A stretch of 64,000 nt of DNA from Takakia lepidozioides (taxonomy: Eukaryota; Plantae; Bryophyta), in the NCBI GenBank assembly GCA_030704615.1, contig CM060734.1, positions 10,106,001 through 10,170,000 on the forward strand, in the 5' to 3' direction. Made by a program: the position numbers and the translations under genes. Positions 20,647 to 63,800 of this stretch are shown here, piece by piece. Numbering within the stretch: the stretch's first letter is position 1; every line of letters starts with the position of its first letter. The notes beneath the pieces were generated by a model, which was given only the letters and a program-made list of their open reading frames with translations, did no database searches and was not told the DNA's origin.

Positions 20647-21151
20647 AACGTTCACAGGGAACGGTTATCATTGGCAGGGAATGACTGTGTGGGAACGACA
20701 ATTGCAGAGGGAACGTACATTCTGTCTTGGATGACAGTTAGTTAGTTAGCCGGTTAGAACAGCTTGCAGGTAGAATAGGCAGAGTAGCGACATAGAGGGG
20801 TCACTTCTTGAAGATCACTTCTTGGACATCATTGGGGGAGATCAGGCGGAGAGCACGATCTTGGAGCGCAGGGATGGAGATTACACAGAGGAGGAGATAT
20901 GACGAGATGATGCTTGATTCATGCAAGCTGTAGAGATGCACTGTAGAGCAGATTAGAGACACCATGGCTTCGGCCTGATACTTGATAGATATTAATCCGA
21001 TATATATTTCATACTCACACTGTGTAGAGAGACCTGAGTGAAGCTGTGGAATGAATGTTTGGGTAGATGGAACATGGAAGATTGCAGAAGCAATCTGATA
21101 CTTAATCATAGACAATAAGGTAACTTGCTAATATGAATGCGAGAAGGAATA

Positions 21152-21236
21152 TGTCGTGCACATACATATCGCTACACAACTACATCGCTGTCCAAACCAC
21201 ACCACACATATATGCACAATAAAGTAGTCTGCCACA
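21152..21236 (-). repeat. Terminal repeat B2 (85 bp)
   Basis: Direct copy of 21597-21681 with 3 mismatches; TG..CA ends. Confidence 0.95.
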
Positions 21237-21237
21237 A

Positions 21238-21594
21238 TGATAACCAAACTAGAAAAGGACACACACTCTCAACACAAGAAATATGCAATCCCTCAACATC
21301 ACTCTTTAAGATAATAGTCGAGCCAGGGGCACCCCAAGCTATGGGGACTCCACCCCACAACAACCTACACTCCCATCATAAGCACACTCAGATCTGAAGA
21401 ATGCAGGAGCTCGGTCGCGCAGGCTCAACTCGAGAGAGATGAGCCGCGCGACTGCCGCTCTCGTGAAGATAAGACGGACCAGGTGTCAAACTAAACTTGA
21501 CACCTGATTTAACACTTGACCTAAATCCAAGTGTTAAATACAAATAACTAGTTTTATTCTAGCTGTTTTCACACTGTGCTTATTTAACTTGACA
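21238..21594 (-). repeat. Repeat A2 (357 bp)
   Basis: Direct copy of 33171-33526 (about 3 differences). Confidence 0.95.
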
Positions 21595-21596
21595 GC

Positions 21597-21681
21597 TGTC
21601 GTGCACATACCTATTGCTACACAACTACATCGCTGTCCAAACCACACCACATATATATGCACAATAAAGTAGTCTGCCACA
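21597..21681 (-). repeat. Repeat B1 (85 bp), directly after the PPT
   Basis: Joined to A2 by the palindrome GACA-GC-TGTC (21591-21600). Confidence 0.95.
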
Positions 21682-21693
21682 ATCGCCCCCCTA
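21682..21693 (-). promoter_or_regulatory. Polypurine tract
   Basis: Minus strand TAGGGGGGCGAT immediately before the TG of B1. Confidence 0.75.
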
Positions 21694-21941: not shown

Positions 21942-23200
21942 CTATCCAATGCAATGTGGACATAACCAATCCCCATCTGGAACCATCTCAAGAGGTGGAG
22001 TCAAGCATCCCATATGCCAACCTCTAGAGCATCGATCACACCAGCATGGTGGCTGCCCCTTTAGCAGACCCACACAACATGCACCTCAAACCTGCAGATA
22101 CCACTGCCAGATTTGGGTCAATCCTGCCATCGACATTCGGAAGGTGACATGGCACACAATACGCACATGGTCCTTCCAAGTTATGCCATCCCGACCCTCC
22201 AAGACCAAGACGCCTGAGGGCAAGACCTCTCGAACCCTCAAAATAACACGTCCTGCAGTCACATCCAGGGTCGTAGGAGCAGTCTGCTGCAGATAGACAT
22301 AGTCACCAGGGTTGAATCTCCGAACCCCAGGACGATAGCCCCCACCACGTATGGTAGCATACCTCAACGTATCACGGTGTTGAGCAATGGCAAGGTTCTC
22401 GAAAGCCATGGACATGACTCTCTTGAACAATTCTGCACGCTGCTCACATGCACGTGCCCACACGTCCGGATCGTCAAGGTTAAGAACTGTAGCAGCTTCT
22501 CTACGAATGGATGTAGGCAAATCCGGCTCTCGGCCAAAGAGAAGAAAGTATGGTGAGAAGGAGGCAAGTGATGCTTGCTTGCTGAACCTGTAGCCCATGG
22601 CTAACCAGGGTAACTGAAGGTCCCAATCTCCTAGGTGTCCCTTCTGCAAGCCATACTTACGCAAACCCCTCTTTACTGTCTGAACAACTCTCTCTGCCAA
22701 GCCATCGGCCTCAGGATGATCCCGAGAAGTGGTGCGGTGGTCTATCAAGGCCTTGTCACACAAAGCCTGAAACTCCCCCAAGAACTCTCTCCCTTGGTCC
22801 GTGAGTACCTCAGCTGGAGCACCGAATCGGCTAAGCACACAATCCAGGAATACATACGCAGCTCCCTCACTAGCCTTATCAGGCAATGGAACCAATTCAA
22901 TCCACTTGGAGAAGTGCTCCACCATCACCAACACGTACTTGTTGTGGCGCATGGTCAGTGGCAACGGCCCTGCGAAGTCAAGACTCCACCTGTAGCCCAA
23001 TCCCATGATCGGAAGAGGGTGCAATTGTGGAGTAGGGGCGTTGAATGAAGCACGCACCCTGTCACACACCATGCACCTAGCCACAAATTGTTGTACCTCT
23101 GTGTGCATACCACGCCACCAATATTGCCCCTGCAGTAGACTATGAGTGCGTCGCACCCAAAATGCCCCAACTCCTCATGGGCATGGCGCACTAACCGTGC
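21942..23200 (-). pseudogene. DDE (rve) integrase with C-terminal PHD finger; frameshifted
   Basis: HAHEELGHFG...CMVC zinc finger; WSLDFAG / LTDQGREF / GLAER catalytic triad (ORF 22086..23156). After a shift: CMLC...LV(C)DRCSRGWHMGCLTPPLEMVPDGDWLCPHC* (22083-21942). Confidence 0.9.
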
Positions 23201-23203
23201 CCG

Positions 23204-24900
23204 CTATGTTGGGTGAGGCACAATCCTCACTCGACCATCCTCCCACACTCGGAGCAGGTGTGTCCCCTCCCACCTGAACCTCTTGGCTCGTTGTAGGATC
23301 CGATCCCTCTCCTTGGCAGTCACAGTCGCTGCCGTGTCTCCAGTGCGGAGGTAGTCCAACACAACTGAATCCTCATGTATATCTTTGGCGCTACCTTGCT
23401 CATTGCTGGCCTCAGGGTCCTCACACACTTGATCTACAGCCATCCCTGTTGCAGGTCCAACCTGGCCTTCCGCTGCCAAGATACACAGAAATGCAGATGC
23501 ATGCCATCCGGGCACCATCTCCTCGTCCGTCTCACCATGCCACCGAGCTCCAGTGTCATCATGTTGGCTCGTGCATGGATTGCGACTCAACCCATCTGCA
23601 TTGCGATTGACCAAACCCGGTCGATGCACCACCTGAAAGTCATACTCTTGAAGGATGAGTGCCCACCGTGCAAGCTTCTCCGTAAGCTTGTCTAACTCCA
23701 TCAACCACTTGAGTGGTTGGTGATCCGTGACAAGGGTGAAGAGATTGCCGTATAGATAGCACCTGAAGTGTGCCACGGCCCACACTGCAGCTAAGCATTC
23801 TCCCTCATATGAGCTATACTTAGACTCTGCAGCATTGTTCGAGAGGCTAGCATAAGCCACTACGAACTCTCTTCCCTCATCATCCACCTGTGTGAGCACC
23901 CGCTCCAAGCCCTAGCATGCTCCAATCTGTATGCAGCTGAAAAGGACGCCCCCTGATAGGTCGTCTCAAGATGGGCGCCGAGGTCAACCTCGCCTTGAGC
24001 TCTTGAAAAGCTTGTTCTTGCTCATCTTCCCTCTTCCCACTGCCACTCCTGGTCCACCTTGGTCAGCTTGGTTAGAGCTTTTGCAATGGCACTGAATCCC
24101 TTAACAAACCGTCTGTAATAGTTTGCTAACCCCATGAAAGCTCGAACTCGGCTCACATCCGTGGGGCGTGGAACCTGTGCAATGGACTCTACCTTAGTCT
24201 GCTGTACCCCCAATCCTCCAGGATATATCATGTGACCCAAATACTCAATCTGGTTGTGGAAAAACTTGCACTTGCCCGGATGTAACTTCAATCCGTGCGT
24301 CTTAAGCGCTCAAATACCCCCTGAAAGTGTCTCTCATGCTCCTCCACCGTAGCACTAAGATGATGATGTCATCTATGTAGCACCGAGCAAACTCCACCCC
24401 TGCTAGAATCCTGTCCATGACTCTTTGAAACTCAGCGGGAGCGTTTTTTTAAGCCAAATGGTAAGAACCGCCACTGGTATAGGCAATCCTTCCCGTGCTC
24501 ATTGATCCCCCAGAATGCCGTCTTTTGCTTATCCGCCTCCTTGATCGGCAACTGGTGATATCCGGATCGTAAATCCAACGTGCTAAAGACCTTGGAATGC
24601 CCAATGGCATCAAAGATCTCCTCTGGTGTTGGCATGGCATACTTATCGGACTTGGTCTGACGATTTACAGGCCGGTAATCACCGCACATACGTCTCTCCG
24701 TCCAATTGCCATAGACATCCTTCTTAGCTGGCATCACTGTGGCTGAAACATACTCTCCACCGAGAGCTCCACCAAACCTGCCTCCCAGAGATCTTGAGTC
24801 CTCATCTGAATCAAAGACCTCTCCATGTCACTGTATCTATAGGGTCTCCAAAGATTGGCGTGTCAGTGGCCAACTCAATACGGATCTCTTGACCCTTCAG
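23204..24900 (-). pseudogene. Reverse transcriptase and RNase H; frameshifted
   Basis: RRMCGDYRPVN, LDLRSGYHQ, LPFGLK, CYIDD (~24368-24382), KCKF..EYLGH, FMGLANYYRRF, YEGECLAAVWAV, TDHQPL, NADGLSR. Confidence 0.92.
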
Positions 24901-25369
24901 TGCTCCCAAGTCCTTCAAACTGAAGGCAAAGCAATTCCTATAAGCCCTCAGGAACCGCCGTATACGTCGTCTCTCTCCTCCGGTGACAATGGGTCCAATG
25001 TCAGGCTCCCAATTGTCCTCCGTGACTGCAACCTTAAGTCCAGTGGGCTTAGAGGTAGAGGACGCGTCCCGTGGTTGATATGCTGCAACCTCTTGAGCAG
25101 TACTTCCTTCCTGCTCAGTCAATGACAATGCCTCATCCTGCCCCATCATCTCATCATTGAGAACCTCCTCATCCCGAGAAGAATCCCCAACCTCATCCAT
25201 CACAGCTGCTTTGGCTGCCAACTCCCTCTGAACCTCGACCACCTCCCACGTGTGCCATGGATGTCTACACCCCGTGGTCCTCACCGGCTCGCCCCCACTC
25301 GCTGCCTGTACCGTCTCGGTAGGCAGAGAGACCGTCCAGGGAAGTGCGCTCCGCACTCTACGTTGCTCA

Positions 25370-26330
25370 GCCATAGCCAAGCTGATAATCCAGGTCAAGC
25401 AATTGAGATCCATTGCTTGCCCCAACACCTGCCGACGTGATGCCTCAGAAAGAGAAGGCACCGCCGTGGTCCCAGTGGAAAACCCCATAGCCTGCTCTCG
25501 CTCGTCGGCATTTGGCTCCACTAACTGTTGCAACTGGCTATCCCACAGGAGGCCAGGTCCACCATCCCGAAAAGCATGGGATCCTGGGAAGCTGAGCAGT
25601 GTAGGTAATGCTGCTCGTGGTTGACCCACCCTATTGACCACTGCCAAAGGCGAACGGTCATCGTGTCTCACACGTTGAGACTGCCTCCCTGTGTCCAAAA
25701 TGCCATCCACGGTAAGGTGTGCTGGCCGCTGCACCCCATCAAATGCACGCTTGAGTAGTGCGGGTGGCATCAAGTTAGTCCACCAAAGCCGTGGACGATG
25801 AGTCCGTGACCCCACTGCAGCTGCATCCAGCAACACTGCTGACCCAAGCCACGACCGGACTTGATGCACACTGGCCATCACCCTGGCCCGAGAATCACCC
25901 ATCAGTGGTACATTCTCCAAGATGTATGCTGGAGATACAACTTGATGAAGCTGCAAGCAGCGCAAAATCTGCACCATCTCCCAAAACAGACCCGTCCTTG
26001 AGTCTCGCAATCCATTGCCATGCCCGGCTGATGAATGCCCTTGGCAGGGCCAACCTGCCACTACCAGATCAATGGAGCCAACCTGCTCTAAATCCTGCGC
26101 CCCCAGCAAGAAATGTCTGCTGGCAAGGCTTGTTGGAATCCACGAACTGCAGACACTGGCAACAAGTCAGGGTATTGTTGTACCAACTGAGCAACATGGC
26201 GCAGTGAGACGCGTCGTGCAGTCTCATCCCTCTCCACATACAAGTAACGTCGAACTCGTACACTGCCTGTAGCACATCAGCCAATCCGGTGCTGATCCCG
26301 CCAAACAAGTCCAGAAGGCAATGCCTTCAT
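25370..26330 (-). CDS. DNMT3-like C5 cytosine DNA methyltransferase domain within pol
   Basis: Motif I LDLFGGISTG (~26315-26285); II YLYVE; IV IDLVVAGWPCQG; LFWE; VI ILENV; VIII HRPRLWWTN; IX-X EREQAMGF...RRQVLGQAMD. Motifs IV-X lie in the unbroken ORF 24811..26109, which continues into the RT N-terminus. There are small frameshifts N-terminal of motif IV. Confidence 0.92.
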
Positions 26331-26633: not shown

Positions 26634-27060
26634 CTAGTGTGGCATCTTGCCCCGCTGGGCAGCCGCTATACCCCCAATGAATGTCACAGGGAGCTGTGCA
26701 CGGCGACCATCGCCTGACTGCCATCCAGGCCTGTAGGATGCTGACTCCTCCCAAAAGTCCAGGGTGAAGCCCATGGGGTATAACACTGCCCCACCAACGA
26801 GGACATCGTAAGAGACTGTGTCTGTCACAATGGCATTGGCTCGCATTACTGAGCCATCGATATGATGATCCGGCTGCAGTCTAATGGCCAACTGATGCCG
26901 TGTCATGCCCCGAGCCTGCTCTGATCCTCCCAGAGATGTCTGTATCTGGAAAGGGCAAGGCTCCATATCCGCCTCCATGAGGCCCAAACCTGCAATAGCA
27001 GCTCTGCCCAACATCAGTGGCTGAGCTCCCGAGTCCAACAAGACCCGCAGTGGCCGGTAC
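26634..27060 (-). CDS. Retropepsin aspartic protease
   Basis: VLLDSGAQ active site and YDVLVG motif. Confidence 0.85.
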
Positions 27061-27168
27061 TTCTTGCCTGCCGGTCACTCAAAGTGAAAATGCCTCCCTG
27101 GTTGTCTAACAAGACAACTCCAGGTGTCACCATGGCGCGCTCAAAGGCTGGCCTAGCTGGCAGCTCCG

Positions 27169-29276
27169 TCAACCTGGCAGCTGCAGCTTGCCAGGCGCAG
27201 CCGTGGCAGTCTTGACCCTCAAATCCGAGGATCCCTCTGCCACTATACCTTCCACTAACTCCGCAGAAGATGAAATGACCTCCCCACTCTCATAGAGTGT
27301 TGCTGCTAGTCTGAACACTGCAGCTGGCCTTACCCCCGGCGTGGCAATCATTGTTGCCGAGAACAGTGGGGCCTGACACACAGAGGTGGCTGCCCCCAAT
27401 AACACACCGGCCGCACTAGCCTTGGCAGCAGGAGTCAATGCTGCACGTGTAGCTCTCCCCAATAGCATAGTAACCTCCGCCTCGGGAACAGTCGGGCGAG
27501 AACTAGGTGCCATGGATGGCATCGATACAGTCTCCGCCAATGTGAATGACTGAGGAAGCCTCGCCTGACGGCTTGCCTCCCCACGCCGTGGATCCAATTC
27601 CACCTCTGCACCTCGTGGCTCAGGAACTCGTGCTGCTCCTCGAGTCACGGCTGCAGCAGACTCCACCTGCTCTAGTGGTAGTGCTGCTCCGCACATAAAT
27701 CCCATGTCTCCCATATCTCCTCCCTCAGGAGCAGGAGGTGGACCATCCCGCCTGGGAGCCGGTACCCCCGCCTGAGCTGTAGCCATGGCAGCGAGCCTCT
27801 GCTCTAGCTGCTGAAGCCGGTTGGCCATGCCTTGATCAACATCCTGACTTCCGCGTCCTTGGCCATGTTGAGCTTGCCCTTGGCCTGCACCTCGTGCCCG
27901 ACCAACTCGTCCTCTCTGGGCTGGTCCACCTCGCCCCCGGCCACCATTGTTCCCTTGGAACTGGCCTGGGCGCAACTCAGGATGCAAGTCATAACACTGG
28001 GCATCTCCATGCCCATACTTGCCACGATGCCCACACTGCAACTGTGCAGGCTGTGCTTGTGCCGGCCTTCTGCCACTCTCTGGGCAATCTCTCTTGACAT
28101 GGGGTCCTCCACATGTCCAACATATCACCCCTGGTTGCTGTTGGCCTGCAAAAGATGCCACGGGCCTCTGCACTTGAGGTCCCCTGTAAGCTCCATGGAA
28201 CTTGGGTTGGGAAACCTTGCCCCCCTGACCACGGTGCTGGGCAGTACCTTGTGCCTGTGGGCTGGCAGCTGCGCCTCGTGCAGGCATGTCCTTGCCAAAT
28301 CCAATGGTGACAACTCGCTCCTCCACCATGTTGAGCTCAATCCGCTCAGCCAGCAGAAACACATCTGCTAATGTGGGTTGGGCTGCTTGTAACAAGGTTG
28401 CATCTCGCACCCTTCTCTTGAGCTCCTTGTCCAGAATTCCATACCAAAACTGGATTGCCTGAGCTTCAGTAACCCCTTGGGTCACACTTATCAAGCGCCT
28501 CATACGAGTGTACGCCTCTCGCAGGCTCTCACTGGGTTTGCGCTGAAGTCTTGCAAACTTCGCAGCTTCTCTGTCCGTACACCTTGGTAGTTCCTCCGCA
28601 ACTCCTGGAAGAACTCCACCACCGGGTTGAATCTAGGCACATGTGTTGTAGTAGTGGCAGGAGGAGTAGTAGCACCTTTTGAACTGGTACCACCTACAGA
28701 AGTACCAGCACTACTTGCTCCACTACTAGTGCTGGCAGTAGGAGCTATTGGTACTGATGCAGCTACTGGTCGCGTCGTGCCTCGAGTAATGGAGACGTAG
28801 TCAGGTGACCAATACATCCTCCACTCCTCAATCTCTGCTTCATGTCCTCGCCTGAACTCGTGGTAATCGTCCATAGGCGGGCCTTCCAAATGCTGGAACA
28901 GTCCCTTCCACGCCATGAATGGGGTGAATAGCTGTGGATTGCGCATCTGCTGCAAATCACACCAGCTGTCGAACTCCTGGATAAAGTCATCCAACTCGAT
29001 TGTGCCCACAGCTCCAGAGTACCTACGAGGCCCCTTGGTAGCTCCATACATCTCCTCCATGTCGTCCCACAACAATGGCGAATGAAAGTGCACACCTGTT
29101 GATGAAGCCTCCGAGTCTGTGTCTGACTCTACAGTAATTGAGGGTGGCGGTGAAGGTGGTCTGAACCGAATACCTCGTCTTGTGAACCCACTCTCACTGT
29201 TACTGCCTGTAGCCGTACTCCCCTCAAAACCCTTGGGTAACTCCGTAATGACACTCACAATGTGCACCTCCTCCAC
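27169..29276 (-). pseudogene. Gag (frameshift near 28510)
   Basis: ELDDFIQEFDSW capsid-like region; zinc knuckles CWTCGGPHVKRDC and a degenerate CGHRGKYGHGDAQC. Confidence 0.85.
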
Positions 29277-29795
29277 GTGACACTATAAGGCTCTAGTACT
29301 AATCTAATAGTGACACGGGTGGGCACCTGTTGCAGTCTAAGGGTCATATCCCAATGGCTCAGGGCACCTGCACCTGCATCCACCGCAAGAACTCCTATGG
29401 TTGGCTGGTCATCAACCCAGCCTCACCATAGAAGAAACACTGGTGGTCTTGCTGGTCATCACTCCAGCCTCACCACCGACAGCATACTCTAGGATTGATC
29501 GGTGATCAAATCCGGCCTAATCCCTATGAAAGCAAGCGCCCACACAAAACCAACATGGCGCACAGTCAAGCATGCAGGTGTTGGGGGGGATCCAAACACA
29601 AGAAATCAAAACATCAACACCCCCACACCAAAATCCAGCTGCAATGCTGATCCTGCAGAATATCCCAGCCCAAAACCCCGGACTGACTGGCCTCCACCAA
29701 GAGAGGCTTTGGCAACTACGAGTACAAGGTAATGAAAATAGTACAGAGATGGAGGGGAAGAATAGAAGCCCGCCCAAGCAAGATCTAATCCTGAT

Positions 29796-30545
29796 CTATG
29801 CTATCAACTTCCAGACTTCTCTCAAAGTGCCTCGCTCTGCGTGATGGTAAGGTGTAGGAGGTATATCTATGTCCAGAAACCTGCCACTAACCTTGTCCCA
29901 AGCTACAGTAGCTCGCTCTAACCAACCCTCCTCCTCTTTCTGCCAGGTAGAGACAAAGCAATACTCCCCTATCTCCCGCTCACTGAACACTAAAGAAAAC
30001 AAAGGTAGGGTCTGATAGTCTCTCAACTCGAAAGCTTTGAGACGGTTGCGGGTGTCCTCATTGCGAATGACTGCATCTCCTTCACGCACAACAAACATGT
30101 CATTGCTGATGAACCCCCGCTCGTGGTTGCCCTGTGCAGAGCGTATCCGGCTGCAACCATGTCTGATTGCACAAACTTGTGTAGCTCCTGCTCCTCTGCT
30201 CCAGTACACCACGGCCTTGTGACTGAACACCTTGGTCCCCGGGGCTGTCTTTGGCTGTGTTCCAAGCCTAGCTTTCACCCACTTTGGTATTTCACCTACA
30301 GCTGCAGAACTGCTGGCTCCAACAGAGTTCTGACTGTCCAAGGCGATATTGAGGCCCTCAATGCCAACTACAGCAGTCTGTTGTCTACTGCTAATGCCTG
30401 ACTCCCAGTATGCAATCAACTCGTCCAACTGTTCTCCACTCAAATCAGTCTGAGTTCCTTGGGAAACATAAATCCTGTCCCCTTGTGTGCACAGACTAAG
30501 AGAACAGACCTGCCCTTCAATTACGTCCTCATTTCCCCCAGCCAT
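29796..30545 (-). CDS. Extra 249-aa ORF of unknown function upstream of gag
   Basis: Intact ATG-to-stop ORF on the element's sense strand with globular-protein composition; no motif recognised. Confidence 0.5.
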   Translation of the reverse strand: MAGGNEDVIEGQVCSLSLCTQGDRIYVSQGTQTDLSGEQLDELIAYWESGISSRQQTAVVGIEGLNIALDSQNSVGASSSAAVGEIPKWVKARLGTQPKTAPGTKVFSHKAVVYWSRGAGATQVCAIRHGCSRIRSAQGNHERGFISNDMFVVREGDAVIRNEDTRNRLKAFELRDYQTLPLFSLVFSEREIGEYCFVSTWQKEEEGWLERATVAWDKVSGRFLDIDIPPTPYHHAERGTLREVWKLIA

Positions 30546-30802
30546 GCAAGGAGTACATCCACCAATTTGTCTCTCATATAGACCAGCACAGGTTCTAGAG
30601 ACAGGATTGTGGATCTTTCATGGCACACTCACACTCTAAAAATTCCATAGATTTTTAGCAGAGTCCCCAAAACAGAAACCAGGTTTAGATAGGTAGATTT
30701 CCCCTTTCTGCAGCTATCCCCCCAAAAACTGGGTCAAACAGAGTCCATTTGACAAAGATATGATGAATTTGGCTCCAAATCATTCAAATTAGATTAAAAA
30801 GG

Positions 30803-30842
<40 letters not shown>

Positions 30843-31957
30843 CAAGTTTAAAAATTCAAAGTTACACCCAAAATATCTGGTAACTGGTTCCCGGTTCCCT
30901 AAGTTCTATATGGCATCCTAGGTTCCCTGGCCACGTGCCTGCTGTTCCCCTCCATTTCATTTGAGTTCAACAGCTCACCATGCTTTGGAATCCCAACCGT
31001 CTTCTACCACAAACCGTGGTGACGATGGAGGTCGTGAAGCGATTCTTCCCAGTGAACCCTCGAGAGACGAGTCCCCTGCGCACTTATATACACTCTCTTA
31101 ATAGAGATCAAAATCAGCAAGGAGACACCATTGACGACACCCAGAGATCAGAGACAAGTACTTGCGCAGTTCGGAGGCCACAGCATCCCCTCTGGACACT
31201 GAGCGGGGAATAGCTGCTACACAGCAGCTCAGTCTATCGTCAGCTCCTATACCTACTAGCTTCCTGCCCCTGCCCCTCCTTCTTCACAACAAGATTGACC
31301 GTGGATATGCGGAGAGGTGGTCTACCTGGGATCACCATGAAATTGCACAGATCGGGAATATCTGGTCGGCATCAGCACTATAGTGCCAGGGCACATAAAC
31401 CAGATTGTAGGAACAGCTAGAGGAAATGCAGGTTATGCCAGCATCATCCAGACCATCCCTGCATCTTGGATATGAATCCTCCAGCAGGGGCCGTTGCCTC
31501 CATTGCCCGACACTTGGGTTACATGCTCAGCTAGACCTAATCAGGTCATTTCCGTGACAGATTTCAGCGGCATTCAAATCACTGGCCTCGCTATGCACTG
31601 CTGCCCTCAATCAAACATCCTGCAAAGCTGTCACACACGATGCAAAGCTGGCTGTCTTTCTCTGGCAGATCGCACATAGAATTCTAAAGGTAGGGCGTTG
31701 GCTTCAATTCACCCGTGCACTGCTCTGCTTATGCTGCTCGCTTGGGGTTTCAGAATCTCTGGAACACTGCCTACTGCCATGCAACATACCTTCAAAAATC
31801 TGGCCCAAAATTCACTGGCTGCTCGGACACTGGCATGACCAAACCTCTTTAACTCCAATCAGCCTGCTACTGAATTACGATCCCATCACCAAGCAAAATC
31901 TATCCCAATGCCCAGTTGAGCTGCCAGTCTCGCATTCACTTTCCCCACCAAGGCAGC

Positions 31958-32172
31958 TGCAGTACACTGACTGTCTTAGCTCCCTCCATGACAACCTCCC
32001 GCATTTGGGCAAGTTCAGCTTCACGGACCTCCCAACGACTTAGCAGCTGCTTCAGGTCATGGTCCTAGCTAGCGCATGCTGGGCTGCAACCAGTTGCAGG
32101 TCCTTATCATGTAGAAACCCCTTCACTGCTCTCTTTCCATCTCCTGACGCCATGCTCCATCCTCCAGCCACT
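31958..32172 (-). other. Captured host-gene fragment (copy of ~4345-4563)
   Basis: Reverse complement of the MRC/PII1-like exon segment with few substitutions and one small indel. Confidence 0.9.
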
Positions 32173-33154
32173 TCACTTGTTTCAGGCACCCAGGTCCCTA
32201 TGGGCAGGTCACATGCTCCTGTGCCAGCCAGAACAGTGACATTCGACCCCTTCGTCTTCAGGAACAAGCTGGTAGCTTCCTTGATGTCATCAGTTTCCTG
32301 GACACTTAAACGGCAGTATGGTCGCCACCTCTGATTGAGGCAGTAGTGGTGACGAAAGGAGAAGGGAACACAGGGAAAGAGCGAGGAAAAATAAGGGCGG
32401 AGAACTGCTCATGTCAAAAGGTCAAAGCCAAAGAGGTCGAAACATTGTGCGAAGGGGGACTGTGTTTCTGCTGCCCTCTCCCACTTCAGCGCAACATTCA
32501 GCGTCCAGAGAGTGAAGTCCCTCTTTAAGGTAGACCTCCACGGTAAAGAAGATGAAATGCCCGCCACTTTCTATCAGCTTTCTGTCTTTGCATATGACTC
32601 CTATCCCAAAGTGCAGGCCTGTCGTGCGGACCTCAATCCAGACCAGCTTCCATTCGATCCACTCGCTTCCACCACACAGCTGAAGTCAGCCAGTTCGAGC
32701 CGCATATCAACAGCCTGAACGGGCTGTTCCCCCTGCTGTAGAGATACTCGAGCGACCAAGAGCCGCCACCATCAACCAGACCCTTGCCGCCACAGCCGCT
32801 GGCTCTACCTGGACTCCCATTCACTGCTGCCCCATTCGCTGCTCCCATTCACCGCAGCGGGCTCTATGGGGCCTTGACATCACACCACCAGCTGCCATCG
32901 ACATATCCTCCGCAGACGGGTGACGCCCTTATAGTGGAAGCAGACCTCGCCAATGCCAACAGAAATATGGGCAGACCACCATTACTCTCTCTTCTACCAC
33001 ACCATTGCGACTGAAGATGTGAGACGAACTCAAGCTAGAGCCGTTCTATGCTCATTGCTTGAGCTGCATACAAGACCATGACCATCTATATTATAATAGT
33101 GCTTAAAAAAAACAAAAACATCATATCTAGCTTAGCACTGGAAAACTAGATAGA

Positions 33155-33170
33155 GCTCAACTCTCTCGAG
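33155..33170 (-). promoter_or_regulatory. Self-priming primer-binding site
   Basis: CTCGAGAGAGTTGAGC immediately after A1, complementary (15/16) to 33361-33376 inside A1; no TGG tRNA-type PBS. Confidence 0.7.
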
Positions 33171-33526
33171 TGATAACCAAACTAGAAAAGGACACACACT
33201 CTCAACACAAGAAATATGCAATCCCTCAACATCACTCTTTAAGATAATAGTCGAGCCAGGGGCACCCCAAGCTATGGGGACTCCACCCACAACAACCTAC
33301 ACTCCCATCATAAGCACACTCAGATCTGAAGAATGCAGGAGCTCGGTCGCGCAGGCTCAACTCGAGAGAGATGAGCCGCGCGACTGCCGCTCTCGTGAAG
33401 ATAAGACGGACCAGGTGTCAAACTAAACTTGACACCTGATTTAACACTTGACCTAAATCCAAGTGTTAAATACAAATAACTAGTTTTATTCTAGATGTTT
33501 TCACACTGTGCTGATTTAACTTGACA
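33171..33526 (-). repeat. 5' terminal repeat A1 (356 bp)
   Basis: TGTCAAG...GGTTATCA on the minus strand; copy of A2. Confidence 0.95.
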
Positions 33527-34474
33527 AATACAAATAGGAAGCACCCCCATGATACACTAGCTGTAGGTCATGACTAATTGTTTTGAGCGGGCTGAGTGCT
33601 TAGACATTTCCAACTCTTCTATCTTGGAGTTTCACCTCGGATAGCTAAGGGATGGGTGCATTTGGCGACCATACTGGGGAACTGAGTCAAGAACAACCAA
33701 ATGTGACAGGCATCTGGTGGGATCATGGTAGATGGAGAATCAAAGAATTTGATGTGAATCAAATTCCCTGTGGAACTGAGAAAGAAAAATTGTCCAAACA
33801 ATTCTTTCAGAGGTTCTTGGAATTGCCAGACGGTTGCAAGGAAAACATTCTTAAGAGAGTGCATGATGCTGATCCAGAGTGGGGTCTGGAGAAAGGAGTG
33901 ATAAAGATTTATCAAGTGGCCTGTAGAGGGAGAGCAAGTTGGTTACCAACACTGGTTTATGTGATAGCATTGCTATCCATTAAACGAGTGGAGTTTGAAA
34001 GCTGGGAGGAACGAAAAATAAATGTTTTTACTCCTATGCATGAAGAACTTGTACTGGTAAAGAATTGGATTCCTAAGGATATTTTGTGGATCAAACTTAC
34101 ACCAAGAAGAGCTTTTCAGACGTGCTTGCCATATGGTTATATGGTAACGGAGCCTTCTAGTATAGCCAAGGCCGGTGCATTAAAGCTTGAGCATACGAGA
34201 GACACTACAGAAGAGAGTTTTGATTATTGCCTCATTAAAGATATGAAAGACATGGGACATGAGTGATGAAAGGGAAGCTAGACTCCACAGATATTCAGCG
34301 AAAAGAGAAAGTTATTTGAAAGCTAATTATCCATATCTCTGGGAGAGAGGAATAGACATAGGGGAATCATTTAAACCTCTCACACCATTAAGGCCAGAGA
34401 GTACATCACCCATACCGGAAGAACCAGATTTGGATGCCACTCCTTCTTAATCTTTACAAGAAAGATTAAGGGAT

Positions 34475-37400
34475 TTGGTACATGAAGAAGATCAGCCACG
34501 AGGGGAAAGATCCGAGGTACATCCCTGGGTTAAAGATTTGACAGAAATCTTTGATCTGAGTTGGCATGGAACACCAAGAGCAGGAATTCCAGTTTCTAAA
34601 ACACAAGCCAAAGAAGGAGAGGAAGATGTGGCAGAGCCAACGGAGAGTTCAGACTCTCCAATACCACTTCAGTTGCGTTATATGAGTGAGGAAGAAGAAA
34701 TCCAACAGAAGAACTTGGAAGATGAAAACAGAGAGAAGAATTTGGAAGATGAAGAGTATGAGGAAGTAGACCCAACAGTTGAGGTTGAGACTACAACCAA
34801 GACATCCCAACCTATTGGACCTGGATCAAGTGTACACATCAGCCAATTTGAGCACATGTGTATTGTGAACAATGAGAATGGCGATGATGCCAAGATGAGT
34901 TTGTTTCCTTGTTCACTTATCAAGAAAGCAAGTGAATGGTATGCAAGGTTTCCTAATAATCATTTCCTAACCTGAAATGGTCTTAGTACAACATTCCGAA
35001 ACATGTTCATGACAAGCAAAACTGAGGATGAAGTGTATGGGAGTTTACAACAGTTAAGGCAAAAGAAGCATGAAACTGTTGAAGAGTACATGGAAAAGAT
35101 GGAGTTAATGATGAAAAAGCTGGCTGTTGTACCGGCACCAGGATTACAGAAGACTTGGTTTGTGAGTGGGCTAAGACCTAAATTACAAAAGAAAGTGGAT
35201 ATGCTACCACATAATACAGTGGAGGAGGCATTCAAAACAGCCAACAGAATTGAGCAATTGGGAATGCTTAGAAGAGATAAAAGGGATGATGACGACTCCG
35301 AAGATGAGTAGGAAGGAGAGCAAGAGCTCAGGAGGAAGAGCAAGAAGAAGGAAAAGTTGAAGAGGGACAACTATGAAAAAAGATTGGAAGAAATCTTGAA
35401 AAAGTACGCCACAGAGGCTGCAACACATTGGAGGAAGGGTGTTTGGTGTGCAAAGTGCCAAAATGAAGGTCATACCACAACTTACTGCCACATGAAGGAG
35501 AAACACTGTACTATCTGTAAAATGGATAACCATTCTACTGAGAATTGTTATTACAACAGAAGGACAGTTGCGATAGAACCTAGGCAAGTGAGGGTGCATC
35601 AAGTGCAACCCCAGCCAAGAAGAAACAATGATCAGGACCATTATGGTAGGCCTGGTGGATATAACAATGGTATGGCAGGAAGAGATAATCCAAGAGGGAA
35701 TTACCAAGGCAATTCCAGAGGCAACTATCAGGGTAATCCAAGGGAGAATTACCAGCCAGGGAATCAGGATTATAGAAATAATCCCAAAATAGACCAAGGG
35801 CGAGGACCCAACGGTGAGGAACTGTGTTACTATTGTAACCAGGCAGGACGTCGCAAAGCAGCCTGTCCATTCTGGATCAGACACCAGAATGAGATGAGAG
35901 CTCCTGTGAATGAAGGCCCAGTAGTGGCAGCTCACATGGTTATGCCATGTTTTGTACCAGAAGTAAGTACGATTATAGTTACCAGAAGCAAAGCTAAACT
36001 AATACCTCCAGTGGATGAGGAGGAAGATGTAAATGAAGATGGCAATGATGTGCCTGAAGATGTTGAGGCTTGGAGAGATGAGAAGGAACTGCACAAAGAA
36101 GTGGCTGATACCATAAGGGAAATGCAGAAGGATACTGATATCCCTATGGATTCTTCTGACTCTGAAAGAGAAGATGAAGAAGGTGAAGAGGAAGTGAAGC
36201 AAGAGGCTTCACAGGTGCAGGATAATGAAGGGACTTTGGCTGAAGTAATATGTCAGTCCAAAGCTGAGATTACAATTGGGCAGCTATTGGCTCTGGTACC
36301 CCATTGTAGACACAGGTTGTATCAAGCAATCAATCAGATTGCTCATGAATGGTTGAAGCTCATCAAACAACCATGCGTTGACGCAAGGTAGTTTGAGAGT
36401 CCTGCCAATGTCTCTTTTGCCTTCACTCGAACACAGACCTGAATAGCAGAGTGACAAGTTATAATGTGAAGCCTGAAGGGCGAGAAACAGTCATGGACTT
36501 TGATGATTCCATGCCAGTAATCCAATTGAGAATTGGAAACACAGACTTGACTGATGTACTGATAGATGGAGGCTCGGGAGTGAATATTATGACAGACCAA
36601 TTAAGGCAGAAGCTTGGTCTAAGTAACATGAAACCAGCCCCATTCACAGTAACAATGGCAGATCAAAAGAGTGTACAACCATTAGGCTTCATAAGAGGAG
36701 TAAAGATACAGATTCAGAAGATGATCTTTAAGATCATAGTGACTGTGTTGAAAATGGATGATGTCATGGAAGCTTACTCCTTATTGGGTCAACCATGGCT
36801 TAAACAGGCCAGGGTAATCCATGACTGGAATTCCCAGTTACTAACTGTGCATGATGGGGAGCACAAGATACAGATCACCACTAAGAAATATGGTAGACTA
36901 CCTGCTACACGGAGACCTCGTGGAGTCAGAGAGTATGACTAGAGGGGAGGGCTTGATGAGGAGCAGGAAGCTACACTGTTTGCTGCACACCCAGAGTGGG
37001 AGCAGGTTGCATAAATGCAATTGGGAGGCTTGAGTTGCTTTAAAGGTATCTGCTGTGGTGCAATAACAACAACACCAATTAAGGAGGAAACAAGCAGTTA
37101 CCCACCACATTTCTATGAAGAAAGAGATGGAGAAATAGAAATCCTAGAGGAACCAGCACTGTGAGTTTACAGGATGAAGTAGTGGTTGGATGGACAATCA
37201 CAACTGAAGAACAGGTGAGAGAAGTGAATGTGGGAACTGAGGAGGAACCAAGAATGGTGAAAGTTGGGGCTGACTTGGAGCCGGAATTCTTTGAGGAAGC
37301 TAAGAGCCTGTTTATCAAATACAAAGATGAATTTGCTTGGAGCTATGAAGATCTGAAAGGGATACCACCTGAGATCTGCCAGCATAAGATTGAACTAGAA

Positions 37401-39960
37401 CCAGGGTCAGTACCAATCAAACAGGCAAGGTACAGGATGAATCCCAACTATGCACAGAAGGTTGGGGATGATATTGTGATAGTTCCCAAGAAGAATGGCA
37501 AACTGAGAGTTTGTGTGAACTATAAGAAGTTGAATGATTGTACAAAGAAAGATCCCTTTCCTTTGCCATTCACAGAAGCTGTACTGGACATTGTGGCAGG
37601 CCATGAGATGTACTCATTCATGGATGGTTTCAGTGGGTATAACCAAGTACAAGTAGCTGAAGATGATCATGGAAAGACAGCTTTCATCACAGACTGGGGT
37701 GCTTATGCATACAAAGTCATGCCTTTTGGACTTTGTAATGCACCAACAACTTTCCAGAGAGTGATAAGTGAATCTTTTCAAGAGTATTTGGATGATTTCA
37801 TGCAAGTGTTCTTAGATGACTTCAGTATGTACAGCTCTAAGAATGAGCACTTGCAGAAGTTGGAGTTATGTTTGGCCAAATGCATGATGAGAGGTCTTGG
37901 TCTAAATCCAGAAAAGTGTACTTTCTGTGTGACCTCAGGGGACACATTGTGTGTAAGAAGGGACTGCTTGTGGATCCTAGAAAGACTGAGGCCATTAAAG
38001 CATCCCCATCAATAAATATTAAGGCTCTAAGAGATTCCTTAGACAAACCAACTACTACAGAAGGTTTATCAAGCGGTATGCACAGATGGCAGCACCATTG
38101 AGCAAGCTTTTGAAGAAGGATGCAGTGTTTGCATGGACAGCTGAATGCCAACAGGCATTTGAGGCACTTATAATGTCAGTAACAACTACACCTGTGTTGA
38201 TTAACCCTCACTGGCATGTGGTATTTCATGTACACTGTGATGCCTCAGGAGAAGCATTGGGGGTTGTGTTAGCCCAAAATGTCACAGGAAACATAGATTC
38301 ACCTGTGTACTATGCTAGCGGATTGTTGAACAGTGCTGAGAGGAACTATAGCACTACTGAAAGAGAAGCTTTGGCAATGATTTATGTAGTCAAGAAATTT
38401 AGTCATTATCTACTGGGAAGGAAGTTTATGTTTTATGTGGATCATCAGGATTTGATTTATCTGGTGAACAAGCCTTTGATAAGTGGCAGGATAGCAAGAT
38501 GGTTGATTATCTTGCACGAGTTTGAATTCGAAGTTGTTTGCAAGTCGGGATGTTTGCATCTTGTGGCAGATCATTTGTCACGCCTTTCAATAGGAGAGCC
38601 CGCCACATGAGTAGACGATCAACTGCCTGATGCCAGTTTATTCGCAGTGGAGGTGCAGGGAGCAGATGATTGGTTGGATTGGCAGTGGCCAATCAGATAC
38701 TACCTTACTCATGGTCAGTGCCCACCCAGTTATGGGAAAGAGCAAAGGAAAAGAATAGCTATCAAGGCATTACCATACACTATGATAGGTGGAAGATTGT
38801 ATAAGCTAGGACCTGATGGAGTTCTTAAATGATGCTTGTACCACCATGAGGTAAATAAAGTTTTGGAAGAAGTTCATAAAGGAGTGGCTGGCGGTCATTT
38901 TGGAGAAGAGACTACCAGTAGGAAAATACTACTTGCAGGTTACTGGTGGCCTACTTTATTCAAGGATGTACACAAGTTTTGCAAGAATTGTGATGAGTGT
39001 CAGAGGCTAGGACCTTTGCAAAGATCTGGGAAGATGGCTTTGCATCCTATGATGCCTACTGAACCATTCCAGAAATGGGGATTAGACTTTGTTGGACCAA
39101 TTAATCCACCAGCCAGGAATACACAGAACAAGTATATAATCACAGCCACTGATTATACCACAAAATGGGTGGAAGCTAAGGCTCTGAGGGACAACACAGC
39201 TAAGTCCACATCAAGGTTTCTATATGAGAACATTCTCACAAGATTTGGCTGTCCCCTGGAATTTATCAGTGACCAGGGAAGTCATTTCATTAATGAGACC
39301 ATTGAACTATTGACTAAGGAGTTTATGATTGTGCATAGGAAGAGTGCAACCTATTACCCACAGGGCAATGGGCAGGCAGAGGCCACCAACAAAATACTAT
39401 GCACTATTTTGGCTAAGATAGTCAATGCAAACAGGACAGACTGGGATACAAAGCTGTTGACAGCTTTGTGGTCATACATGACTTCATATAAAGTCACCAC
39501 CAAGTATACACCATTCCAATTAGTTTATGGTATGGAAGCTTTACTTCCAGTGGAATTCTTATTACATACCATGAGAGCTGGATGGGGAAGGAGAATGGAA
39601 TTGGAGGATTCAATTAAAGTAAGGAAACATGAATTATATCATGTGGAAGAAGTACGTGCTGATGCAGTAGATAACATGACCAGAATTCAGATGAAGAGGA
39701 AAGATCAGTTTGATGAAGGTAAATTGAAGACTTTTAAGACGGGTGATTTGGTACTGTGGTTGCCGAAGAAGGGAAAGGTTAAAGCTTCTAAGCTTAAGTC
39801 ACCATGGAAATGACCTTATATCATACAGAAGATGTATGATAACAACACAACTATATTACAAACCATTAACAAAGAGATGCTTGGTAGAGTCAATGCCAAT
39901 AAGTTGAAGGGATACAGTGGTATCCATGATAGACCATTGCAGCATGATTTGCATCTTGAA
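34475..39960 (+). pseudogene. gag-pol with stops and frameshifts
   Basis: gag LFPCSLIKKASEWY and CX2CX4HX4C knuckles; PR LIDGGSGVN; RT DGFSGYNQ, MPFGL, FLDD; RH CDASG, TEREAL; INT GGHFG..CDEC, WGLDFVG, SDQGSHF, NGQAE. Confidence 0.92.
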
Positions 39961-40932
39961 ACACAGATGCAGTCACAGGCTACACCAGTAGCACCAGCGG
40001 AGCATGAAGCACTTGTCATAAAGCCGAATGTGAATGGTCATAGCAGAGAACACAAATGTCCACACAGCCATCACAACCCACCACAGTCTAACACAACATA
40101 TCACAGCTTACCACAGCCTGTTACAGCCCAACACAAGCAACACAACCCACACAGGTCGTACAGTCCATAGGGGCAGTGACAGATGGACGCAAGATAACGT
40201 CAGTTAGCTGGCCGGCAAGTGTAAAGACAATTTGGAAGTCAAATTCGAAGAATATGCCACGCGGTCAGAGGAAAACGGAAAAGTGTTTGAATTCAAACAC
40301 GTGGCCTAAGGGGCAAAGCACTCCGCATTGCATGTACTGCAATAACGGCCGTCATCACACAAGAAAACAAACAGGGCCGTCAAAGTACCTACCCGGTACA
40401 TCAGCCGAAACTTATTACAAGCCCATTAATGCATCAAGAGGACAAGTAACGGAACCCTTTACGCGTCCGGCAAAGGGGAACCTTTGCCACATATGCAGTC
40501 CTAGTGGTCATTCCAAACGGGAATGTGAACAGATTAGGGTAAAAATGAGAAGTTACCTAATGAGGCAACGACCAATCAGCAACGTGAATTTTGTGCAAGA
40601 GATTCCATTCAAGAAACAAGAACAAGAAATTAAGAAGATTATGAGCGGAAGAATAGGTGTTATTCCGGATAACCGATGTCTCGACGGGAGAGGCAATCAA
40701 AGCTATAGCTTTGTAGCTATGGCGGATATCACGACTATACACTAGCTCTACTTCTTATGTAGTGGTGCAAGGAAAGACAGGTTGAAAGTACTTTCTCTCT
40801 CACTCACTATTTGCAAGCCCCGTAGGCTTACACTCACTTGCCTGTTCCATTCTGTGCTAACCACACTTTCATGCTCTACGCCTTACAAGCTTTCCTATAG
40901 TTATTCCAAACAAAGCCTTCTTGTTTGTCCGG

Positions 40933-60897: not shown

Positions 60898-63800
60898 TGT
60901 CAAGTTATTTTACCACTAGTGTGAAACTAGCTAGGAAATAGCTAGCTTTTACATATTGACATTTGGGATTGGCCCAAGTGTCAATCCAGGGGTCAAGGCA
61001 GATTTAGGCCCTGGAGTGGTTATCTTCACGGCAAGCGCGGAAGGCTCATCTTTCTCGAGTTGAGCCTCACCGCGCCTAGCTATGGCGCCGTAGTGTGGAT
61101 TCCCCATGGCGTGGGGTGTACTTGGCTTGACTTGTATTTGAGTGATGAGGTTATATATGCATGAGTTTATGCTTCAGCTTTGTGAGTTCGCATGAGCTTG
61201 TGCTTGTATTCTTCTTCTTTATCACTCGAGAAAGATCAGCTCGTATCTATGAGTGCTAGATACGAGTTAGTTGTAGCACTTGTGGTTTTTGCTTGAGAAT
61301 GAGAGAAACCAAGTTGTTATGCAAGGAGCACCGTGGAGCTCTTGGTTGTTAGAAGCGGAGGCGATGTGGGTTACGAGGTGGTAAACCTTGGCATTCGATC
61401 TTCAGCTTCAGAGATGAAAGCACCATACTGCAGGTAATTCCAGAGCACCTTGATGGTTTCAGATTGTGTACATGCATGAGCAAGCACGATGGGAAGAGGA
61501 CCAGTCAAGAGCAGGTTATAGTGGCTTTGGTGGCAAAGCTGAGAACTGGACTTGGGAATGCGAGCTTTCATTGTGTGAAGGATTGCAGGACCAAGCGAAA
61601 GGGCTGATTTGGCTTGGGGCAAATCAGTGCACTTTGTGGAGTATGGTGAGATTGGGGTTTCAATCTCGAGCTTCAGCATTGAGAGGGCTCTTGTCATGGC
61701 GAGAGCAGGGCTGGAACAGGAGCTAAGAGAAGTGTCTTGTGGCTGAAAATGTAAGCCTTAAGGTTTCAGGAGCTTGGCAAAGGCTGTGGAGTGCTTAGTC
61801 TTGTCTTAGAGAGCATCAAGGAACCAAGGAGCCAAGATAGGGGGCTGATATCTCTTGTGTGAAGAGTTGCATGTGTGGAGCATGCTATCAGCCTGGTGAA
61901 GGCTTGCACTTTCAGGTGTGGGAGTGCAAGAAAGGAAGGAAGGGGCTGGTTTCCCTGTAGGGCATGTGGAGCATGCTTTCAGCCTGCTGAAGCTTGTATT
62001 TTCAGGTTTGTGGGTGCAAGAAATGAAGCAAAGGAGTGATTCTCTTATGGTGAGAGTAGGGCATGTGTGGAGAATGCCTTCAGCCCATTGAGGCTCTTGT
62101 TTTCAAGCTTTAGAGAGCTAGAACGGAAGTCTAGGGCTGGTTTCCACTTGGAGTGAAAGAAAAGCACTTGTAGGGCCTATGTGAGTTGGGGTTTCAACTT
62201 CAAGCTTGAAGGGAGCGCAACTTTGAAGCAGCAGGTGTAGGGGGCTGGAATAGGCTCTAAGACAGATGCTATGGCCAAGGAGAGTGCTTGAATGAGTGCT
62301 CACAAGGGCTGGGAACCAGCAGGGCTTGGTTGTTTGCCATTGAGTTTAGTGGCGTGTTGGGAGGCTAAGTGAGAAAGAAGGCTTGGTTTGTGGCAACCAC
62401 CTCATGGCTTAGGGCTACTATGGTGGTGTGTGCCGAAAGAGCAAGAATACCTTGCTGATTTCCTCACAGCCGCCATAGCTCAATGGAAAGAAGCCTAGAG
62501 TCCAAGAGACACAAACCTGATTGGCGTGGCTAAACCCTTGGAAGAAATGGCTAAATTGCCAGAGCGGCCATGGATGGGGCTGTGATGGGCTGTGAGGGGC
62601 GTGACAGGCGTGCTAAGGCCTTTGAGGCATATGAGGCTGTGAGGGGCTGTGACAGGCTGTGCCCATGGCCTTTGGGGCTGTGATGGGCTGTGAGGGGCTG
62701 TGACAGGTGCCGTGCCTGAAGGCCTTTGAGGCTGTGAGGGGCTGTGAGGGATGTGACAGTGCCTGTGCCTGAGGCCTGTGGGGCTGTGAGGGGCTGTGAG
62801 GGGGACTGTGTTGTAGCAACCGTGCCTTGAGGGGCTGTGGTGGCTGTGACGGGCTGTGACAGGCTTGTGTGCCAGTGGCCTGTGGGGCTGTGAAGGGCTG
62901 TGACAGGCTGTGGCCCATGGCCTTGGGGCTGTGATGGGCTGTGAGGGGCTGTGACAGGCCGTGCCTGAGGCCTTTGATGCTGTGACGGGGATGTGACGGG
63001 ATGTGACGGGCTGTGCCCATGGCCTTTGGGGCTGTGATGGGCTTGTGAGGGGCCGTGACAGGCCGTGGCTGAGGCTTTGAGGCTGTGCAGGCTGTGAGGG
63101 GCTGTGACAGGCCGTGCTGAGGCCTTTGGGGCTGTGAGGGGCTGTGAGGGCTGTGTCAGGCCGTGCCCTGAGGCCTGTGGGGCTGTGATGTGTGTGTGTG
63201 TTCTGGGCTGTGGACTGTGACGGCTGTGGTGAGCTGTGTGGGCCTGTGCTGGTCTGTGGTGGCCCGTGTTGACCTGGGGGCCTGTGCTGACTCGTGGAGG
63301 CACTGGTGGACTGCCTAAGGACTGGCATGTGGTCTGGAAGGCCGAATTTTGAAGCTCGTGGAGGGCGGTTTGAGGAGTATCTTCATGATATTCCCATGGT
63401 CATGCAAGTGAGGGAGAGAGGAGAGGAAGAGTGTTGGGATGAGGGCATGCTGGGGTTAGGCATTGCTTTAGCTTCTCTTCCTCGTAGTTTCCACCCTCTC
63501 ATTAGGCCAAGACCTTTCCGTAGGTGGAGGCAAGAGTCAGTCCGGGTTTGGGCTGGGGTGTCCTTGCAGAGCAACACCGTGGAGTTGTTTTTGGTGTGGG
63601 GGAGTTGTCGTTCTGATTTCTTGTGTTTGGATCCCCTCCATACCTGCATGCTTGACTGTGCGCCATGCTAGTTTTGTGTGGGCGCTTGTTTTATAGGTGA
63701 TTGGTCCGGATTTGATCACCGGCCAGTCCTAGAGCATGCTGTCGATGGTGAGGCTGGGGTGATGACCAGCCAGACCATCATTGTTCTCCTGTGGTGAGGT

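Follow-up and report, generated by a model that had tools for sequence, protein, structure and literature searches.

A probably self-primed Gypsy retrotransposon with split repeats in the moss Takakia lepidozioides and its likely integration by way of an internal LTR palindrome

Introduction

A broad survey placed the self-priming of plant Gypsy elements in the Tcn1 chromoviruses, whose plant members are described there with a chromodomain (100%), a 5-bp target site duplication (TSD; 100%), a mean length of 6.4 kb and ordinary LTRs (PMC6317226). KnitGypsy-Dnmt3 of Klebsormidium nitens is a Gypsy element with DIRS-like repeats according to the legend of Fig. 4c in its description (de Mendoza et al. 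2018, PMC5890265). The passages on this element give no priming mode, polypurine tract (PPT), TSD or integration model (PMC5890265), and within the full-text literature searched it is named in that one paper only. Gypsy-7a_cRei of Chlamydomonas reinhardtii is described as active, with a PHD finger and with a left LTR in which the final 8 bp of the right one are missing; solo LTRs were not seen (bioRxiv 2022.06.16.496473). Foamy-virus integrase is reported to cleave the palindromic LTR-LTR junction of 2-LTR circles (PMC1180852). For retroviruses and LTR retrotransposons alike, it has long been asked whether LTR circles can serve as substrates of integration.

We analyzed 64,000 nucleotides of Takakia lepidozioides DNA (contig CM060734.1, positions 10,106,001 to 10,170,000; hereafter the window), which hold on the minus strand, at 21152-33526, a Gypsy element that has split repeats and codes for DNA-methyltransferase and PHD domains. 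This element resembles KnitGypsy-Dnmt3 in having a C5 methyltransferase before RT in a Gypsy pol and repeats in the order A-coding-B-A-B; in contrast, KnitGypsy-Dnmt3 is reported in its description from K. nitens only (PMC5890265), whereas the closest named relatives of the window element are in liverworts and Sphagnum. Gypsy-7a_cRei, as described, likewise combines Gypsy with PHD (bioRxiv 2022.06.16.496473). The Gypsy domain order is that of Tf1/sushi and Tcn1 elements (PMC7175516, PMC6317226), and as in Tf1/Tf2 and Tf1/sushi the primer-binding site (PBS) adjoins the 5' repeat, is complementary to a stretch inside it and is no tRNA site; the duplex is however 11 nt in Tf1 (PMC7175516) and 15-17 nt in the window group. 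Unlike Tcn1, the window group has a PHD finger, a 4-bp TSD, a length of 7.7-12.4 kb and split repeats. The window element is not a Tf1/Tcn1 chromovirus, as it differs in chromodomain, TSD length and LTR layout; the reference to Tf1/sushi-type elements in the preliminary description of this locus applies to the probable priming mode and not to the family (no chromodomain, 4-bp TSD, split repeats).

Two other groups invite comparison. PAT, Ngaro and VIPER elements share the split direct repeats in the order A1-coding-B1-A2-B2 (PMC4157794), but the window element has a DDE integrase, a protease, a PPT, TG…CA ends and a 4-bp TSD, and no tyrosine recombinase was seen in it. The Phygy and Selgy elements of bryophytes and lycophytes are, like it, non-chromovirus Gypsy elements of non-seed-plant hosts with a 4-bp TSD and no chromodomain; they differ in their tRNA-Trp or tRNA-Ala PBSs, with no extra domain listed in the survey (PMC6317226). 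The NCGN target given there for Phygy (PMC6317226) is also not that of the window group, whose TSDs are not NCGN, and neither window copy has a TGG PBS.

Results

Identity, coding domains and relatives of the element

The coding region runs from 29282 to about 21950 on the minus strand, in the order gag, protease, C5 DNA methyltransferase, RT, RNase H, DDE integrase and PHD finger (Table 1), and is interrupted in the window copy by several frameshifts. The Ty3/Gypsy order PR-RT-RH-IN with a DDE integrase is evident from the ORF list and Pfam, both here and in the intact relative L001, and the methyltransferase domain is also present in complete relatives. No Pfam match was obtained for the gag-like region. 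Behind the integrase of the window element there is no chromodomain but a PHD finger in its place; PF00385 is not among the domains of the 240 integrase relatives listed, and another Gypsy element in the window does carry it. Among the scanned element ORFs of at least 131 aa an rve integrase was found and no recombinase match.

Table 1. Positions in the window of the features of the split-repeat element and of its diverged copy.
Feature	Position	Strand	Basis
TSD AATA, left copy	21148..21151	+	empty site in contigs
Repeat B2, 3' end, ends GACA	21152..21237	-	A2|B2 junction 21238/21237
Repeat A2, 357 nt	21238..21594	-	repeat comparison
Palindrome GACA-GC-TGTC, B1 to A2; putative integrase attachment site	21591..21600	.	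spacer comparison
Repeat B1, 87 nt; putative first part of U3	21597..21683	-	96.6% to B2
PPT, immediately before B1	21684..21692	-	sequence
PHD finger behind integrase, frameshift-split	21950..22083	-	three-frame translation; PF00628 in intact relatives
DDE integrase (H2C2 + rve)	22086..23174	-	PF00665 E 1.3e-13
RT + RNase H, split over several frames in window copy	23204..24827	-	PF00078, PF17917
C5 cytosine DNA methyltransferase domain in pol, PCQ motif	24811..26166	-	PF00145 E 1.7e-11
Aspartic protease	26634..27074	-	PF13975 E 0.0019, below curated cut-off
Gag-like region, two frames, zinc-knuckle-like motif	27169..29282	-	ORF list; suggested by position and motif
Small hairpin directly after PBS	33124..33152	-	predicted fold
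PBS, non-tRNA type (no TGG)	33155..33171	-	sequence; perfect complement in most contig depth
Repeat A1, 356 nt, 5' end, starts TGTC; putative U3-3'part/R/U5	33171..33526	-	99% to A2
Hairpin burying primer when U3 sequence present	33346..33384	-	predicted fold, -28.6 kcal/mol
Predicted self-primer, 17 nt; putative RNA 5' end ~33376	33360..33376	-	16/17 complementary to PBS
TTATCTT, 28 nt upstream of primer, non-canonical TATA-like candidate	33398..33404	-	sequence/alignment; common to diverged copy
TSD AATA, right copy	33527..33530	+	empty site in contigs
Diverged element's repeat A (5' end), self-primer 61044-61060 inside	60898..61224	+	~70% to A1 over 174 nt
Diverged element's PBS	61224..61240	+	16/17 complementary to 61044-61060

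The integrase is 85% identical to proteins of Calypogeia fissa and 56-57% to proteins of K. nitens, among them KFL_009030040 (57%), which has the order DNA_methylase-RT-RH-IN; other named relatives come from Riccia, Marchantia and, at 49-51%, volvocine algae. Named homologs of the methyltransferase are from Calypogeia, Sphagnum, Riccia and Marchantia. Judged by these identities, the window element has close relatives in mosses and liverworts; no relative was found in viral contigs. Two scans yielded 82 loci with 51-81% integrase identity (among them the best 80 of 404 metagenome matches), drawn from short-read metagenome assemblies in which repeats can collapse. Eight of the 82 are complete A1…B1-A2-B2 elements, and their A and B sequences are unrelated. 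L001 (1-9285) and L002 place a plant-type retrotransposon on contigs of a cyanobacterial assembly, likely by eukaryotic contamination.

The 3.8-kb leader contains a 273-aa ORF (29796-30617, minus strand) with no Pfam match and no counterpart in the 82 loci, and an antisense LINE-like zf-RVT fragment (31558-32043, plus strand); the stretch 31958-32179 is present again, inverted, at 4338-4563. The element sits in another high-copy repeat, as contig depth is very high right of 33527 (33527-33620) and the uninterrupted form of this host repeat at 21148-21151/33527 was seen in three runs. Another Gypsy pol (PR, RT, RH and IN, no chromo or PHD match) at 33649-39813 on the plus strand is possibly the internal region of the host repeat. 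The window also holds a chromodomain Gypsy (53476-57735, plus strand; Chromo, SH3_Tf2-1) with a second, rearranged copy at 44893-47905. Several elements, and among these the diverged copy in its leader, hold related 10-nt tandem arrays of the CACAGC type (20408-20654, 40062-40148 and 62568-63230). An ORF at 13162-13665 (minus strand) weakly matches part of PWWP, over 18 residues (E 3e-05).

Termini, target site and internal palindrome

Two complete terminal direct LTRs, with a PPT before the 3' LTR and a PBS after the 5' LTR, are not what this element has: its termini are A1 and B2, and its PPT precedes B1. Contigs run from 21118-21147-like sequence straight into 33527 (X1, 15; X2, 10; X6, 1), and this empty site fixes both termini and the 4-bp duplication. 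In X7, from another study, A ends at 21594 and B at 21597 against new flanks. We also considered A1 and A2 as ordinary LTRs and rejected this, as there is no TSD and no PPT adjoining A2.

The same organization recurs in the relatives. A G-rich tract precedes B in 34/34 B-A-B loci listed (L036, a low-complexity repeat, was excluded). When the nine complete elements, window included, were scored for TSDs, six had an exact 4-bp duplication, two a 3/4 match and one none, with a 5-bp TSD in 0/9; the end of L081 was read by eye for this scoring. Complete A…B forms gave an exact 4-bp TSD in L026 and L039 and none in L045, and L073 was too decayed; L051, like L045, is without a TSD. No B was found upstream of A1 in the nine complete elements (full 300 nt checked in seven) or in the diverged copy.

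Between B1 and A2 a spacer of 2 nt was best in 26 of 27 loci, the exception being L041 (a tie), which is the same insertion as L034. The spacer is accordingly 2 nt in 26/26 distinct insertions (GC 8, AC 7, AT 5, GT 5, AA 1), a pattern such as would be expected of an inherited site decaying by C-to-T change.

In L081 (1147-1628, minus strand) and L028 (604-810, minus strand) the B-A-B end of a second family member lies on the opposite strand near another element's 5' end. L079 (6482-7484, in B) and L080 (11000-15610, in the PHD region) carry a foreign insert, apparently the same repeat in opposite orientations.

Pairing of the PBS with repeat A in the two window copies

The preliminary description had proposed tRNA-independent self-priming for this locus, from a 15/16 pairing between the sequence after A1 and a motif inside it, a similar pairing in a diverged copy and the lack of a TGG-type PBS. 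All three observations hold. Positions 33170 to 33155 pair 15/16 with 33376 to 33361 on the minus strand, 61225-61240 pair 15/16 with 61044-61059, and since each duplex reaches one base into the final nucleotide of A it extends to 17 nt with 16/17 paired in both copies. No TGG occurs within 50 nt after A1 or after the diverged repeat. None of 5000 dinucleotide shuffles of either repeat reached 15/16 (maxima 14 and 13), and when each 16-mer of the window was scanned against the preceding 356 nt, at least 15/16 was found at both PBS sites and at one unrelated site, ~46035-46064. This third inverted match falls in the protease region of the chromodomain Gypsy copy at 44893-47905.

The joint change of both partners claimed for the diverged copy is also present, as C/T in the primer and G/A in the PBS. 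This single compensatory pair is nevertheless not what supports self-priming, as it amounts to one transition and could be copied from primer to PBS by reverse transcription. The much less conserved surroundings given in the preliminary description need a qualification: the conserved block is about 25 nt, wider than the 16-mer because the primer sits in a conserved hairpin, and the first 174 nt of the two repeats are still about 70% alike. The region before gag in the diverged element (63506-63856) is 84% like 29365-29713, in matching orientation.

The one mismatch of the window duplex, at 33160, is private to the window copy: 97-100% of the depth in contigs from public runs shows the perfect complement (17221/17713 in X1, 354/366 in X2 and 135/135 in X5, X1 and X2 being the same sample, and depth not being taken as copy number). 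No variant is listed within the primer 33360..33376, and 33377 varies in about 60% of the depth. Directly after the PBS, at the position of the small hairpin of the window copy, a 10-bp hairpin of different sequence is predicted in the diverged copy.

ARAGORN found no tRNA anywhere in the window, and Rfam over 32900-33600 gave no tRNA-like match and one weak miRNA match (E 0.31). The sequence TGGTTATCA just inside the end of A1, which we take to resemble an initiator-tRNA PBS, was rejected as such, as it belongs to the repeat and is missing from the diverged copy.

Pairing is kept across families

We scored the pairing over 18 5' ends, 17 of them distinct since L005 duplicates L011. L001 and L014, which read B-GC-A-PBS directly and are possibly collapsed assemblies, were used for pairing only; The two ends of L001 overlap, and its reading is the one expected of a 1-LTR circle or of a collapsed repeat. 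At least 13/15 pairing at the same place in A was found in 15 of 18 ends (14 of the 17 distinct ones), which extends over many copies what the preliminary description had proposed from two. In the 15 pairing ends the partner lies 148-184 nt into A, and shuffles scored as high in 0/300 for 11 ends, 1/300 for three and 6/300 for one. L039, L026 and L021 pair at 10-11/15, the level of shuffles, yet at the same position in A.

Primers of different families share as few as 4-8 of 17 bases, and those of the window, L011, L051 and L076 families only 4-7. PBS and A from matched families nevertheless pair at 14-15/15, against 8-12 for clearly different families and 13 for the close pairs W_A1/W_A3 and L001/L014. 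For each PBS the best partner is the A of its own element. The change of the PBS sequence together with the internal motif between families excludes a full-length tRNA primer. Self-priming is thus supported by the comparison of families and not by the single compensatory pair.

The pairing could instead reflect a long-range RNA structure with a role in packaging, dimerisation or translation control, priming being left to a host tRNA fragment or another RNA. The primer does hold the palindrome CTCGAG in a hairpin loop, by analogy like a dimer-initiation site. In pairing elements, however, the 3' end of the duplex lies 1-3 nt from the repeat end, which is the geometry that a primer needs; the PBS is wholly different between families and yet tracks the internal motif; and this reading, with neither a TGG nor a tRNA-like match (Rfam, ARAGORN) to offer a host primer, is in our view very unlikely. 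That the pairing arose by chance, and the layout from a one-off rearrangement or an assembly artefact, is scarcely credible: it is contradicted by the shuffle and window-wide controls, by the recurrence of the layout in relatives, eight of them complete and many partial, whose A and B sequences are unrelated, and by the empty-site contigs. On the strength of these comparisons we consider it highly probable that the element primes reverse transcription with its own RNA and not with a tRNA.

Putative transcription start and RNA folding

Copies of the L050 group have a canonical TATA box (8/8), placed 31-34 nt before the position at which the primer begins. A TATA box at -31 to -34 has the spacing expected for a plant transcription start. 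The window copy has no canonical TATA box but the TATA-like candidate given in Table 1. The distance between the predicted start and the base opposite the first nucleotide after A is 12 nt in the L050 group.

RNA folding was sensitive to the assumed start. With RNA starting at the primer, the duplex is predicted in 11/11 elements with a mean pair probability of 0.55-0.97. With 15 nt of upstream sequence added, it is predicted to be gone in 4/11, including both window copies, and with 40 nt in 5/11. For the window copies the duplex is predicted only for RNA starts no more than about 5 nt away from 33376; a start 15 nt earlier lowers its predicted probability from 0.79 to 0.01. The duplex is lost in the longer RNAs because the hairpin at 33346..33384 then buries the primer. 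A similar hairpin is predicted in the diverged copy, L011, L076, L001 and L014, and is weak or absent in the L050 group; it may mask the second primer copy in A2. Taken together, TATA spacing and predicted folding suggest that the self-primer consists of the first bases of the transcript, whose start would lie near 33376. If cleavage occurs at the end of the duplex, the primer would be 16-17 nt long.

Variation at the A2|B2 junction

In the window the A2|B2 junction joins the primer-defined right end exactly to the PPT-defined left end. Six complete elements of the L050 group, with an A1|PBS boundary of equal length, show three A2|B2 forms, one of them with an extra G as in the PPT. Placed on a tree of 13 insertions, which omits the duplication forms L044, L054 and L067 and the duplicate L041, junction forms require six changes against a shuffled mean of 6.3 (as low in 106/200), with no clustering. 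When duplication forms and the duplicate insertion are included the forms do cluster (8 changes vs 10.0, 7/200); the tree is weakly resolved, with three starred branches. L067 and L080 are different insertions with a common 17-nt duplication beside the junction, so that some junction-proximal variation is inherited.

Loci that end cleanly in a single B number 18 distinct ones, against 25 distinct B-A-B; L061, L066, L073, L079 and L028, decayed, interrupted or at a contig end, were left out of this count.

Discussion

We read the window element as a split-repeat Gypsy of the order A1-PBS-gag-pol-PPT-B1-GC-A2-B2 that likely primes itself and likely uses a palindrome within its LTR for integration, and we give this reading a probability of roughly 0.62. 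The tie between the primer site and the split-repeat layout, which the preliminary description did not contain, is the more unusual part.

As the PBS follows A and the PPT precedes B, the true LTR is likely B-GC-A. The RNA would begin near 33376 and pair its 5' end with the PBS; RNase H would release the primer, as in Tf1, minus-strand strong-stop DNA would transfer to A2 and the plus strand would initiate at the PPT. The outcome would be an ordinary linear cDNA with B-GC-A as its LTR (B-GC-A…B-GC-A), the ends of which would be without an attachment site, the TG/CA sites standing back to back within the LTR as GACA-GC-TGTC. Joining of the free cDNA ends, in a 2-LTR circle or by repair at insertion, would make the A|B junction anew in each cycle. 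The DDE integrase would cut after CA on both strands of GACA-GC-TGTC, dropping the two spacer bases, and insertion with a 4-bp stagger would leave A1…B1-GC-A2-B2. If a 1-LTR circle were cut in this way, the product would be A…B, a form that does occur among the loci.

The scattered A2|B2 forms and the fixed spacer fit a junction rebuilt by end joining and a palindrome that serves as integrase site. From this pattern it is probable that integration uses the internal palindrome and that the cDNA ends are joined. Whether a free circle is the intermediate is a more tentative matter, to which we give slightly less than even odds; a cut inside the LTR with joined ends is better supported than a free circle. 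With its two palindromes, a symmetric 2-LTR circle would be expected to yield A-B-A…B as well; this form is absent from the complete elements, some of which have short upstream sequence, and its absence counts against such a circle. The single-B forms are compatible with 1-LTR circles, as they are with B1-B2 recombination, with repair at insertion and with assembly collapse.

It is also conceivable that no circle is formed and that, with self-priming kept, integrase works on the internal palindrome of the linear cDNA while host repair joins the dangling ends. This would give the same products, A…B-A-B by end joining and A…B by annealing of the repeats; it could account for the many single-B forms (18 distinct against 25) and, provided that the longer A repeats anneal efficiently, for the lack of A-B-A…B, and three of nine contig joints, each in single contigs, start at the A2|B2 junction. 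It needs, however, a double-strand break at each insertion, and later B1-B2 recombination, 1-LTR circles and assembly collapse are other possible sources of the single-B forms. We regard this route as unlikely.

Still less likely, in our estimate, is replication as in PAT and Ngaro elements, in which the RNA would reach B2, the junctions would be templated and the primer-PBS duplex would serve priming or folding within that scheme. The A1-B1-A2-B2 layout is identical (PMC4157794). The duplication beside the junction that is common to L067 and L080 also agrees with templating. In the model for PAT, Ngaro and VIPER elements, insertion takes place at the B|A junction. Against such replication, the positions of the PPT (before B1) and the PBS (after A1) are those of a plain LTR cycle, close sisters differ in junction form (three forms in one starred clade), and in place of a tyrosine recombinase there is a DDE integrase, with a TSD of 4 bp.

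The internal-palindrome reading has a parallel in foamy virus, where integrase also cuts in a palindrome built from two attachment sites; there, however, the palindrome arises where the two ends of a side product meet (PMC1180852), whereas the window group inherits it as part of its LTR and would have no attachment sites at the true cDNA ends. By analogy, Gypsy-7a_cRei possibly uses the same mechanism with a very short B. More broadly, we tentatively propose, as an idea a little short of an even chance, a green-lineage Gypsy clade of charophytes, liverworts, peat mosses and perhaps volvocine algae with attachment sites in mid-LTR and obligatory circle integration, in which 2-LTR circles would give live A…B-A-B copies and 1-LTR circles dead-end A…B copies. 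Within the full-text literature searched, which takes in few subscription journals and not Repbase, no description of self-priming, a 4-bp TSD or internal-site integration was found for this group.

Self-priming in plant Gypsy elements is, on these comparisons, probably not confined to the Tcn1 chromoviruses, and if true the present case would be a second, independent origin of it among them; it also suggests how split-repeat elements may be primed. Such elements would probably be missed or mis-bounded by LTR finders that require a pair of terminal LTRs and a TSD, and this blind spot may explain the scant description of a high-copy bryophyte family with a DNA methyltransferase. With its defined 10-bp site, its predicted products and possibly a relative that jumps in laboratory algae, the family is a natural case for the question of LTR circles. 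If the proposal holds, it would be a DDE-integrase retroelement with LTR circles, usually called dead ends, as its obligatory substrate.
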